Positions 7,332 to 9,532 of a stretch of 9,532 nucleotides of DNA are shown piece after piece. The position numbers and the translations under genes were made by a program. The notes under the pieces were generated by a model. That model saw only the letters and a program-made list of their open reading frames with translations, was not told where the DNA came from and searched no databases. Source of the stretch: a virus (Duplodnaviria > Heunggongvirae > Uroviricota > Caudoviricetes); the IMG/VR virus record IMGVR_UViG_2671180986_000016; one strand, written 5' to 3'. Numbering within the stretch: position 1 is the stretch's first letter; each line of letters starts with the position of its first letter.

Positions 7332-7526
7332 ATGCCAGAGAACAACAGCAGAAAACCGGATAAAAGTGCAACAGTGCACATAGACGCCGGAACTATGGAG
7401 AAGCTCGAACGCTATCAGCAGTTCATTAAAAGTCATCACCCTGGAATGCCAGTACCCACGAAAGGGCAGATTGCGAGAAGCGCGGTTGAATACTGGTACA
7501 GGGCAACGTTAGGAGCCTGGCTATGA
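7332..7526 (+). CDS. Small protein (64 aa if ATG 7332 is the start; may extend upstream into the mask), possible ribbon-helix-helix fold
   Basis: MPENNSRKPDKSATVHIDAGTMEKLERYQQFIKSHHPGMPVPTKGQIARSAVEYWYRATLGAWL. Stop TGA at 7524-7526 overlaps the protease ATG at 7523 (ATGA). Predicted beta-strand (ATVHID) followed by two helices suggests RHH-like, judged by eye only. The upstream context is masked, so the start is uncertain. Confidence 0.4.
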   Translation: MPENNSRKPDKSATVHIDAGTMEKLERYQQFIKSHHPGMPVPTKGQIARSAVEYWYRATLGAWL

Positions 7527-8290
7527 AAACATGGTTTTCCATTAAGGCTATGGCTGATGTTGTACATGTACGCATTTATGACGAGATCGGCGGGTACGGT
7601 GTAAAAGCATCGGCACTTACTGACGAGATCAACGCGTGCGGTAATGTGCCTGAAATCCATCTTCGCATCCATTCACCTGGTGGCGACATCTTTGAAGGGC
7701 TGGCTATCTATAACGCCCTGAAAAATCATCCGGCAAAGAAAATTGTACACATTGAAGGCATGGCGGCTTCTATGGCCTCGTTTATTGCCATGTGTGGCGA
7801 TCACATCGTTATGCCTGAAAACGCGATGATGATGATACATGCCCCCCGTGGTGTTACTGCCGGAGTGTCGGGCGACGTTCGCCGCTTTGCTGACCTGATG
7901 GACAAGCTGGGCGACACGATGGCGGAAACCTNNNNNNNNNNNNNNNNNNNNNNNNNNNNNNNNNNNNNNNNNNNNNNNNNNNNNNNNNNNNNNNNNNNNN
8001 NNNNNNNNNNNNNNNNNNNNNNNNNNNNNNNNNNNNNNNNNNNNNNNNNNNNNNNNNNNNNNNNNNNNNNNNNNNNNNNNNNNNNNNNNNNNNNNNNNNN
8101 NNNNNNNNNNNNNNNNNNNNNNNNNNNNNNNNNNNNNNNNNNNNNNNNNNNNNNNNNNNNNNNNNNNNNNNNNNNNNNNNNNNNNNNNNNNNNNNNNNNN
8201 NNNNNNNNNNNNNNNNNNNNNNNNNNNNNNNNNNNNNNNNNNNNNNNNNNNNNNNNNNNNNNNNNNNNNNNNNNTAAGTTGTCTTGCTGA
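7523..8290 (+). CDS. ClpP-family (S14-like) serine protease, phage prohead/head-maturation protease; 3' end uncertain (mask 7932-8274)
   Basis: ATG at 7523 with SD AGGAG (7511-7515) at 7-nt spacing. Visible 136 aa match the ClpP core: IHSPGGDIFEGLAIYNAL, catalytic-Ser motif EGMAASMASF, MMMIHAP (compare ClpP INSPGG...GQAASMGA...MIHQP). The end 8290 is the first visible in-frame stop; the gene may end inside the mask. Confidence 0.75.
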   Translation: MKTWFSIKAMADVVHVRIYDEIGGYGVKASALTDEINACGNVPEIHLRIHSPGGDIFEGLAIYNALKNHPAKKIVHIEGMAASMASFIAMCGDHIVMPENAMMMIHAPRGVTAGVSGDVRRFADLMDKLGDTMAETXXXXXXXXXXXXXXXXXXXXXXXXXXXXXXXXXXXXXXXXXXXXXXXXXXXXXXXXXXXXXXXXXXXXXXXXXXXXXXXXXXXXXXXXXXXXXXXXXXXXXXXXXXXXXXXXXXXKLSC

Positions 8291-8525
8291 TTCAGGCTGT
8301 AGCGTTGAGGATGCACGCGAACGCCTTTTACTCACTATGGGTAAAGAATCGACACCGACAAANNNNNNNNNNNNNNNNNNNNNNNNNNNNNNNNNNNNNN
8401 NNNNNNNNNNNNNNNNNNNNNNNNNNNNNNNNNNNNNNNNNNNNNNNNNNNNNNNNNNNNNNNNNNNNNNNNNNNNNNNNNNNNNNNNNNNNNACAGGCA
8501 GAACGCGGCAACCCTTACGCCATGA
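8277..8525 (+). CDS. 3' end of an unknown ORF between protease and capsid gene (scaffold- or decoration-like by position); start masked
   Basis: The MCP-minus-one frame is open from 8277 (...SCLADSGCSVEDARERLLLTMGKESTPT...) through mask 8363-8493 to TGA at 8523-8525, which overlaps the capsid ATG at 8522 (ATGA). It could be as short as the 62-aa track ORF (ATG 8337, no SD) or start in mask 7932-8274. Confidence 0.3.
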   Translation, partial: SCLADSGCSVEDARERLLLTMGKESTPTXXXXXXXXXXXXXXXXXXXXXXXXXXXXXXXXXXXXXXXXXXXXXRQNAATLTP

Positions 8526-9532
8526 TGAGCCTTTTCGATATGGCACAGGCATCATTAACCCATCGCGGCATAAGCACAGGCAGCTNNNNNNNNNNNNNNN
8601 NNNNNNNNNNNNNNNNNNNNNNNNNNNNNNNNNNNNNNNNNNNNNNNNNNNNNNNNNNNNNNNNNNNNNNNNNNNNNNNNNNNNNNNNNNNNNNNNNNNN
8701 NNNNNNNNNNNNNNNNNNNNNNNNNNNNNNNNNNNNNNNNNNNNNNNNNNNNNNNNNNNNNNNNNNNNNNNNNNNNNNNNNNNNNNNNNNNNNNNNNNNN
8801 NNNNNNNNNNNNNNNNNNNNNNNNNNNNNNNNNNNNNNNNNNNNNNNNNNNNNNNNNNACATCACCACCAGTGACCGTGGCGAACCAATCGCGCTGGCAA
8901 CTTACGGAAATATTTTCAGCATTACCCGACAGGCGATTATTAACGATGACCTGAATCAGTTAACAGTTATCCCACAGGCAATGGGGCGAGCAGCCGCCAG
9001 AACGGTGGGTAATCTGGTTCATCTGGTGCTGACAGGAAACACAAAGCTTTCTGACGGTATACCGCTGTTCAGCAAAAAACACGGAAATGATATTGATAAC
9101 GGAGTCAGCACTACAGGGCTTGGCATTGCACGCCGTGCAATGCGCACACAGAGGGATGAAAACGGTGAGGTGCTGAATATTGTGCCAAAATTCCTTCTTG
9201 TTCCTGCGGCTCTGGAAGACAGAGCGTTGCAAATGGTTAACTCAACCACGCCTTTCGGTGCCGATACAAACAGTGGTTCATATAACCCGTACCACAAACA
9301 ACTGGATATTATTGTCGATCCCCGCCTTGATGAAGTCAGTGATAAGCAATGGTACATGCTTTCAGCACAGGGAACGGACACAATTGAGGTGGCTTATCTT
9401 GACGGTAATGACGAGCCTTACCTTGAGCAGCAGGAGGGCTTTATTGTTGACGGTGTGGCCTGGAAGGTCCGCATTGATGCTGGCGTTGCTGCTCTGGATT
9501 ATCGCGGAATGGTCAGAGCGATTTCTTCATGA
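8522..9532 (+). CDS. Phage major capsid protein (HK97-fold type by context and composition); start may lie up to about 180 nt upstream inside mask 8363-8493
   Basis: ORF ending TGA at 9530-9532. Visible C-terminal 224 aa (ITTSDRGEPIALATYGNIF...NPYHKQLDIIVDPRL...WYMLSAQGTDTIEVAYLDG...) have typical major-capsid character and follow the prohead protease. First visible ATG is 8522; the frame has stops at 8300, 8306 and 8342, so the start is between 8345 and 8522. Confidence 0.7.
   Translation: MMSLFDMAQASLTHRGISTGSXXXXXXXXXXXXXXXXXXXXXXXXXXXXXXXXXXXXXXXXXXXXXXXXXXXXXXXXXXXXXXXXXXXXXXXXXXXXXXXXXXXXXXXXXXXXITTSDRGEPIALATYGNIFSITRQAIINDDLNQLTVIPQAMGRAAARTVGNLVHLVLTGNTKLSDGIPLFSKKHGNDIDNGVSTTGLGIARRAMRTQRDENGEVLNIVPKFLLVPAALEDRALQMVNSTTPFGADTNSGSYNPYHKQLDIIVDPRLDEVSDKQWYMLSAQGTDTIEVAYLDGNDEPYLEQQEGFIVDGVAWKVRIDAGVAALDYRGMVRAISS

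Follow-up and report, generated by a model that had tools for sequence, protein, structure and literature searches.

In HK97 and lambda, protease, scaffold and capsid protein come from genes that are separate or nested, and HK97 uses a protease that is not ClpP-like. For Gifsy-2, Effantin et al. (2010, Virology 402:355) reportedly described a tripartite capsid protein, which is said to form a procapsid with internal protease and scaffold parts that are later removed. The fusion of the genes in this Gifsy-2-type family is confirmed in PMC12315714. Among satellites, the 'capsid morphogenesis' component of Gram-negative PICIs is a homologue of the helper major capsid protein that is carried by the satellite and thought to redirect capsid size (PMC10085698, PMC6092414), and cfPICIs are defined by a portal, head-tail adaptor, connector and terL of their own (PMC10085698). 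Our literature search for a satellite protease/major capsid protein fusion found no paper and no experiment on its role.

Here, we analyzed the head region of a 9,532-nt stretch of viral DNA (Caudoviricetes; IMG/VR record IMGVR_UViG_2671180986_000016), hereafter the window. With a probability of about 85%, positions 7523-9532 on the plus strand represent a capsid gene of the Gifsy-2 'tripartite' type that was split by a deletion in this lineage, the three ORFs read there earlier being an artefact of masking. The locus falls in an already known family, and nothing new follows from it directly.

Masked sequence and the frame from ATG 7523

The window contains six runs of N (1321, 299, 794, 343, 131 and 273 N). 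These runs were compared with ten reference contigs (L003-L006, from IMG/VR, and L008-L013, from NCBI) in which the flanks share 100% identity with the visible window; among them is Shigella sonnei Ss046 (CP000038.1), whose visible flanks match exactly. The comparison revealed that the runs replace 1013, 228, 603, 285, 99 and 221 nt of real DNA, respectively. As measured in these ten public contigs, all six masks are thus 20-32% longer than the DNA hidden. Because every N run exceeds its real length, visible frames are not comparable across the masks. At 7932-8274 (+ strand), 343 N stand for 285 nt (95 codons) covering the end of the protease, with Asp170 in GFADEV, and the first part of the linker; between exactly matching flanks, the offset changes by 58 nt, and these 58 extra N cause an apparent frame shift of +1, while the real translation is continuous and stop-free. 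At 8363-8493 (+), 131 N stand for 99 nt (33 codons) of linker (NKTTPANLYYAYTDNGNITGDAMRQGLNARLGHE), and the offset jump of 32 nt causes an apparent shift of +2. A shift of +1 followed by one of +2 is exactly the pattern that had been taken for a separate middle ORF, and the appearance of three ORFs arises from N-masks that exceed the hidden sequence in length.

The stops and open frames listed in the sequence-only reading are present in the masked window as described. In masked coordinates, the frame of ATG 7523 hits TGA at 8288-8290 and then TAG 8300, TGA 8306 and TAA 8342, positions 7523, 8522 and 9530 share one frame (each is 2 mod 3), and the frame ending in TGA 8523-8525 is open from 8277, reading SCLADSGCSVEDARERLLLTMGKESTPT. 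On this basis, three genes in the classic order had been proposed: a protease gene that stops at 8290, then a scaffold-like ORF of at most about 195 aa with its end at 8525, and a capsid gene whose start is at 8522. The visible pieces are indeed open in different frames in masked coordinates, with stops where stated; however, the frame differences equal the surplus N (+58 nt giving +1 and +32 nt giving +2), both TGA 8288 and TGA 8523 are out of frame in real DNA, and all ten flank-identical contigs carry a single frame that is stop-free from the ATG to residue 355, leaving the three-gene arrangement with almost no probability.

On the real sequence of the identical contigs, the protease from ATG 7523, the piece at 8277-8362 and the capsid N-terminus at 8495-8585 lie in a single frame with zero stops. 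In L010, the S of SCLADS lies 696 nt (232x3) from the ATG and the Q of QAERGN 882 nt (294x3), and the interval is free of stops. The continuous frame refutes the three-gene model and equally the two-gene alternative, in which the protease ran to 8290 and the capsid gene began at 8522 with a short unrelated ORF between them. The intermediate ORF of up to about 195 aa is created by the mask lengths, as its visible piece is in frame with both protease and capsid, and the capsid start proposed at 8522 disappears, because ATG 8522/8525 encode the internal Met304/Met305. What holds from the earlier description is the head module in protease-scaffold-capsid order, as domains of one polyprotein. The method lesson is that phase across N-masks is unreliable, mask length not being true length, and that findings based on phase need rechecking.

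Domains and family membership

Immediately upstream, at 7332-7526 (+), lies a conserved ORF of 64 aa (MPENNSRKPDKS...GAWL), which is called in L008, L012 and L013, annotated in L001 and matched by phrog_4934 (unknown function; E=4e-40). The stop codon of this ORF (TGA) and the start codon of the fusion gene overlap as ATGA at 7523-7526, which suggests that the two genes are translationally coupled.

The fusion gene opens with the visible part of a predicted ClpP-like prohead protease domain (aa 1-136; 7523-7931, +), matched by Pfam CLP_protease (E=3.7e-33) and by NCBIfam NF045542, 'head maturation protease, ClpP-related' (202.9 bits; cut-off 120). Ser83 (7769-7771, in GMAASM) and His106 (7838-7840, in MIHAP) are visible in the window, and Asp170, which lies under a mask, was read in the window-identical contigs. 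All three residues fall on the catalytic columns when aligned with solved ClpP chains and are invariant across the aligned satellite and prophage fusions; judged by this alignment, a ClpP-type catalytic Ser-His-Asp set is present. Searching solved structures by sequence returned ClpP only among the 60 matches listed, with no capsid chain.

The piece formerly read as the middle ORF (8275-8362, +) corresponds to aa 233-260 of a scaffold-like linker and is in phase with ATG 7523 in L003-L005 and L008-L010. An alignment of intact fusions shows the linker residues C234, D237, C240, E243 and A245-E247, as well as M305, to be invariant in satellite and prophage sequences alike. The idea that this piece is a scaffold or decoration protein in its own right was not borne out, since the PHROGs search matched the linker only at inner positions of fusion families (positions 247-356 of phrog_133, and inner positions of phrog_4523); neither the linker alone against PHROGs nor the whole protein against Pfam and NCBIfam matched a separate scaffold or decoration family, and the lack of a match to an independent scaffold family speaks further against three genes. 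The linker-capsid junction (aa 295-324, QAERGNPYAMMSLFDMAQASLTHRGISTGS; 8494-8585, +), which includes the two internal methionines, continues the frame of the upstream DNA. The C-terminal 223 aa (ITTSDRGEP...RAISS, followed by the stop) occupy 8859-9532 (+), up to the last base of the window, and are assigned by Pfam Phage_capsid_4 and NF045540 to an HK97-type major capsid domain. For the capsid domain, PF25209 Phage_capsid_4 gave E=7e-52 and Mu-like_gpT E=2e-11, and the Phage_capsid_4 match begins at about aa 330 in an intact relative; by these profile matches, a C-terminal HK97-type major capsid domain is present.

At the level of the whole protein, profile matches place the locus in a known family, that of NCBIfam NF045540 ('scaf_prot_MCP1'), which describes a fusion of ClpP-like prohead protease and major capsid protein. 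Intact relatives score 889-904 bits (888.9, 903.9), the lower value being that of the 92%-identical relative in L002 against a cut-off of 475, and phrog_133 gives 907.5 bits over the whole length. The two ORFs of S. sonnei cover profile positions 2 to about 385 and 386-650, together end to end, and score 442.7 and 394.1 bits singly, each below the cut-off of 475; on these profile coordinates, the locus as it stands is a disrupted member of NF045540. Relatives of up to 96% nucleotide identity are annotated as single fusion genes of 628-637 aa, and PGAP annotates the same fusion among the matches listed from 337 complete E. coli genomes. An uninterrupted protease-linker-capsid ORF is present in L001, L002 and L007, whereas in all ten window-identical contigs, which stand in for the unread masked bases of the window, it breaks after residue 355. 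Once repaired, the protein aligns colinearly, over 99% of its length, with the fusion of Gifsy-2 (48.4% identity), those of mEp213, LLS and mEp460 (49%) and those of Stx phages and CP-1639 (51%).

Before the deletion, the fusion gene would have encoded a polyprotein of about 626 aa, comprising a ClpP-like serine protease domain (aa 1 to about 175; Ser83/His106/Asp170), a scaffold-like linker of about 150 aa (aa 176-325, approximately) and an HK97-type major capsid domain (from about aa 330 to 626). By analogy with the Gifsy-2 family, the polyprotein would assemble into a procapsid that encloses the protease and scaffold parts, after which the protease would cut these parts away to leave the mature shell protein; autoproteolytic removal on maturation is inferred from that analogy.

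The 13-nt deletion and the probable split of the gene

The mask at 8586-8858 (+; 273 N for 221 nt) covers, in the window-identical contigs, a 13-nt deletion, the stop of ORF-A, the TTG start of ORF-B and an A AAA AAG heptamer. The sole real gene break of the region is this deletion, which is invisible in the masked window. Alignment placed a 13-nt gap after Val355 relative to the intact L001 and L002, and the same gap was found relative to the intact E. coli allele L014/L015. The deletion occurs in all ten exact-match contigs, with the junction GAAAAATCCGTGAACACAGC and the break at GAAAAATCCGT|GAACACAGC; for the window, whose masked bases are unreadable, it is deduced from these identical relatives. 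Downstream, nine of the ten contigs match 8859-9532 exactly (L006 and L011 being incomplete), and in L010 this segment is out of frame with ATG 7523 (10088-8892 = 1196 = 398x3+2) because of the deletion.

The deletion splits the gene into ORF-A (381 aa), with the protease, the linker, about 25 aa of the capsid domain and a 26-aa out-of-frame tail, and ORF-B (252 aa), a capsid remnant without a native start. Both are called in S. sonnei genomes, including Ss046, and the 252-aa product is recorded in 2765 blocks of the collection. Sequence comparison with these relatives makes it most likely that the gene was split in the lineage of the window as well, and the most likely status of the split gene is that of a pseudogene within a decaying island.

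An intact, functional fusion gene lacking the deletion, like the E. coli allele at the cspD/clpS site, would be conceivable in the window in that the masked interval is not directly readable and intact alleles with the identical C-terminal protein sequence exist in E. coli (P0124, P0127 and P0134; L014); one E. coli strain with the intact allele is GCA_052052155.1. We consider it improbable. Of 674 visible bases, 10 differ in the nearest intact allele, which occupies the same chromosomal site, whereas the deleted lineage equals the window, and the visible codon 8495-8497 encodes Gln, as in S. sonnei, whereas the intact P0127 has Arg. An undeleted interval, 234 nt long and including GCTTGC(A/C)GG(C/A)TGG, would also imply a mask inflation of 273/234 = 1.17, outside the 1.20-1.32 of the other five masks. 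A search for gaps of 215-240 nt across mask 8586-8858, open to either length, matched nothing in genome_contigs or metagenome_contigs and, in viral_contigs, only four already known contigs, all with the 221-nt form; this gap-pattern search found no intact copy of the exact window allele. The window as such is absent from complete E. coli RefSeq genomes, where the best matches reach 96% for the protease half and 80-84% for the capsid half, because the allele is of Shigella sonnei origin.

It is harder still to credit a split gene that remains functional, either through -1 slippage yielding the full-length polyprotein or through the 381-aa product alone, for example by interfering with helper heads. 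The A AAA AAG heptamer (CG-A-AAA-AAG, region CGAAAAAAGG) lies in the ORF overlap, in phase with ORF-A (0 frame); slippage by -1 there, by a minority of ribosomes, would lead into the capsid frame at GSLSNFHEARR, giving a product with a 13-residue substituted segment (junction peptide RSASGRKKGSLSNF). The heptamer, however, consists of native T-K-K-G codons brought into phase by the deletion, and no stimulatory structure was predicted downstream of it, where the fold is no more stable than shuffled sequence (z-scores 0.4 to -0.45). The split form is very widespread, as the number of blocks with the 252-aa product indicates, but S. sonnei is clonal, and its abundance is therefore not evidence of selection. 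A rare S. sonnei variant (P0129, P0132) carries a second deletion of 20 nt that restores the frame. Sister copies have been hit by insertions of IS1 and IS3-family elements and by a primase-protease deletion, a sign of general decay of the island. Given the in-phase heptamer and the frame-restoring variant, complete loss of function is not proven.

A more elaborate version, which we regard as a slightly longer shot than simple residual function, holds that the deletion rewired the gene by turning ACG-AAA-AAA-GGT into a dnaX-type slippery site. S. sonnei would then make mostly the 381-aa protease-scaffold protein, with a little full-length capsid polyprotein through low-rate -1 slippage, and the shorter product might poison lambdoid or Stx-type heads of the same family. 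If this were true, a defence function would have been retained in a decaying satellite. The pseudogene reading stays the preferred one for this lineage.

Island context and comparison with known systems

The gene lies at the 3' end of an island of about 10 kb inserted between cspD and clpS, with the order integrase, AlpA, primase, SSB, small ORF and fusion gene. Phage_integrase, Phage_AlpA and D5_N/DUF5906/Pox_D5 primase matches follow in this order in L008-L010, and the matching ORFs of the window are at 1-1239 (integrase), about 1650-1858 (AlpA) and 3045-5876 (primase); by this gene order, as assigned from domain matches, the island is a satellite of the Gram-negative PICI type. No portal, head-tail adaptor/connector or terminase gene was found between primase and clpS in L008 and L009. 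The island has no tail gene either, and the fusion is its sole head gene. In the window and the roughly 0.7 kb to the right end of the island, annotation recognized no small-terminase or Rpp-type gene, the ORFs there being small and unannotated. In a sister island, the fusion gene is followed by a DUF1441 protein.

In intact islands, comparison with described satellites suggests that the fusion protein would serve as the 'capsid morphogenesis' function of the island. It might build a shell of the island's own, or it might co-assemble with the approximately 50%-identical fusion capsid of a lambdoid helper with a Gifsy-2-like head, resulting in satellite-sized heads. Hundreds of E. coli genomes carry PICI-type islands in which a complete protease-scaffold-capsid polyprotein is the sole head gene. 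This polyprotein is about 50% identical to the Gifsy-2-like/Stx-phage version and has a shorter linker; examples of intact satellite fusions are WP_198798488.1 and WP_001017075.1.

Compared with SaPIbov5 Ccm, the precedent, and the capsid homologue of PmCI172, the likeness lies in a satellite with integrase, AlpA, primase and a capsid homologue. Here, however, a full protease-scaffold-capsid polyprotein takes the place of a lone capsid-fold protein, and the window showed no small-terminase or Rpp-type gene for packaging. With cfPICIs, the island shares a satellite-encoded capsid protein and a head protease, but the portal, adaptor, connector and terL that define them are missing from the stretch that runs from its primase to its right end.

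A close likeness in layout is to Gifsy-2 and to mEp213, LLS, mEp460, cdtI and Stx phages, in which one ORF likewise comprises a ClpP-like protease, a scaffold-like middle and an HK97-type capsid protein. The satellite versions differ in being 626-637 aa long, compared with 675-680 aa in co-resident prophages, in lacking about 20 N-terminal residues and a Pro/Ala-rich linker insert of about 30-35 aa, and in residing in an island that lacks genes for portal, terminase and tail; in the window lineage, moreover, the ORF is broken. HK97 gp4/gp5, with its delta domain, and lambda C/Nu3/E follow the same logic, in that protease and scaffold functions accompany the shell protein and are eliminated as the head matures. 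The three-gene layout is a feature of HK97 and lambda, not of the window locus.

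Mask lengths and the reading frame of the head gene

In masked coordinates, the sequence-only reading described this region accurately: the ATG at 7523 and the terminal TGA at 9530-9532 share a phase containing stops at 8288, 8300, 8306 and 8342, and another phase, reading SCLADSGCSVEDARERLLLTMGKESTPT, is open from 8277 to the TGA at 8523-8525. Comparison with real DNA revealed a different gene structure. The 88-nt middle piece matched four IMG/VR contigs exactly, and the visible pieces from 5872 on were 100% identical in three of them (L003-L005), with an offset that shifted at each mask; the fourth (L006) ends inside the last visible piece. 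Six NCBI contigs carrying a 252-aa capsid ORF, including Shigella sonnei Ss046 (CP000038.1), displayed the same identity and offset shifts. All six N runs in the window were 20-32% longer than the DNA they replace: 1321 N for 1013 nt at 3141-4461, 299 for 228 at 5573-5871, 794 for 603 at 6534-7327, 343 for 285 at 7932-8274, 131 for 99 at 8363-8493, and 273 for 221 at 8586-8858. Phase is therefore not transferable across the masks, and coordinates and frames downstream of any mask are not true, which affects every first-stage inference drawn across one, including ORF lengths such as that of the primase at 3045-5876. Surpluses of 58 N (+1) and 32 N (+2) reproduced exactly the seemingly separate frame of the middle piece.

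Read from the real DNA, the ATG at 7523 opens a stop-free frame that spans the protease and linker and continues into the capsid domain; SCLADS and QAERGN lie 696 and 882 nt from this ATG, both multiples of three, and the TGAs at 8288 and 8523 are out of frame. The three separate genes proposed earlier (protease, a middle ORF of up to about 195 aa, and capsid) are an artefact of mask length, as is the two-gene alternative. The ATG at 8522/8525 is internal, encoding Met304/Met305 within ...NPYAMMSLFD....

The fusion gene and its island

The feature is a gene of known type, in which protease, scaffold and capsid are fused, carried by a PICI-type satellite. Each close relative in E. coli is a single gene, 628-637 aa in length, bearing the annotation [quoted passage not shown]; nucleotide identity reaches 96% in the protease half, and at the protein level L002 is 92% identical. 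A piece spanning the linker-capsid junction matched 337 complete genomes, and the matches listed carry the fusion annotation. Pfam placed CLP_protease at aa 41-173 and Phage_capsid_4 at aa 330-623, the ClpP catalytic triad columns aligned with Ser83, His106 and Asp170, and intact relatives scored 888.9 and 903.9 bits against NCBIfam NF045540 "scaf_prot_MCP1" (cut-off, 475 bits). The phrog_133 match spans the whole protein, and a search with the linker alone, the supposed middle ORF, matched no separate scaffold or decoration family in PHROGs, only inner positions of fusion families. The repaired protein was colinear over 99% of its length with those of Gifsy-2 (48.4% identity), of mEp213, mEp043, LLS, mEp460 and cdtI (~49%), and of Stx phages and CP-1639 (51%). 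Thus, the proposed protease-scaffold-capsid order was right as an order of domains within one polyprotein, not as one of separate genes.

The island (integrase, AlpA, small ORFs, DUF4222, D5-type primase, SSB, a 64-aa ORF and the fusion gene) has its right end about 0.7 kb past the fusion gene, adjoining clpS. This layout fits a Gram-negative PICI, in which "capsid morphogenesis" is a recognised core function (PMC10085698, PMC6092414); the portal, adaptor and terL that define a capsid-forming PICI (PMC10085698) are absent. The 64-aa ORF (7332-7526), conserved in L001, L008, L012 and L013, overlaps the fusion-gene start with its stop (ATGA) and matches phrog_4934, a family without assigned function; its product could regulate the head gene or serve it as an assembly cofactor. 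A 271-aa ORF (1869-2684, plus strand), located between alpA and the primase region, overlaps a 150-aa ORF (2204-2656, minus strand); annotations of relatives place Icd-like genes and a short YlcI/YnfO family gene, the latter on the minus strand, in this region.

A 13-nt deletion and decay of the island

In L003-L005, the gene measures 1868 nt from ATG to TGA, which is not a multiple of three. Alignment with intact L001 and L002 revealed a 13-nt deletion after Val355, beneath the mask at 8586-8858, along with two in-frame differences. The deletion splits the gene in two: ORF-A, of 381 aa, comprises the protease, the linker and ~25 aa of capsid domain followed by a foreign tail of 26 aa, and ORF-B, of 252 aa, begins at a TTG and holds the remainder of the capsid domain. 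Gene calls in S. sonnei genomes include both; ORF-B corresponds to Q3Z3P2 in Ss046, and 2765 blocks of the collection record it. The deletion is present in each of the ten contigs identical to the window, and a pattern search allowing either length at this site found no other form than the deleted one. E. coli retains an intact allele at the same cspD/clpS site (L014, L015), which differs from the window at 10 of 674 visible bases; over these bases, the lineage with the deletion matches the window throughout. We consider it highly probable (about 0.9) that the window carries the deletion, and the fusion gene in its lineage is most likely a pseudogene.

Through the deletion, the native T-K-K-G codons come to read A AAA AAG in phase, and slippage by -1 there would return ribosomes to the capsid frame; the site has no stimulatory structure downstream. 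A rare S. sonnei variant (P0129/P0132, on a 1063-nt contig) reads ...GGAEKSVNTATKKGSLSNF... under the mask at 8586-8858. It combines the 13-nt deletion with a further 20-nt deletion, losing 33 nt in all and restoring the capsid frame. This could be true compensation or, given so short a contig, an artefact of assembly. Together, the in-phase heptamer and this variant leave a small probability that the split gene retains some function.

The island is decaying in S. sonnei: copies carry an IS1 between int and alpA (L008-L010, about 1494-2191), absent from the window, and some an IS3-family element within the primase (5784-6940), while a deletion in L011 (2099-4564) joins primase to protease, giving an 821-aa product.

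Satellite and prophage fusion proteins

A 5'-truncated Gifsy-2-like prophage directly follows the island in one S. sonnei contig (L013, 4801-13883) and in E. coli SCU-171 (L001, 11963-20008). This prophage retains part of the terminase gpA, the portal, a protease/capsid fusion of its own (675-680 aa), a cement protein, a Gifsy-2 family protein and tail genes. Head genes of the satellite and of a candidate helper type thus lie next to each other. In L003 (reverse complement, 4498-9991), the window's island runs at its right end directly into the mid-primase of another island of its family, with a HEPN protein, an intact 637-aa fusion gene and a DUF1441 protein, 99.7% identical to the tRNA-Ile-adjacent island of E. 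coli KFu023 (L007, 9001-14493); this junction reflects recombination, a tandem arrangement or chimerism of the contig.

Compared with co-resident prophage versions, the satellite fusions are shorter by ~20 residues at the N terminus (alignment A1, columns 1-23) and, within the scaffold-like linker, by a Pro/Ala-rich insert of ~30-35 aa (columns 234-268). This difference might bear on capsid or shell size, or on incompatibility with the helper scaffold. Our literature search returned no experimental work on the role of a satellite-encoded fusion protein. The intact protein would presumably form the satellite's own shell or, alternatively, would co-assemble with a lambdoid helper's homologous capsid polyprotein, and SaPIbov5 Ccm provides a precedent for such co-assembly with a helper capsid protein.
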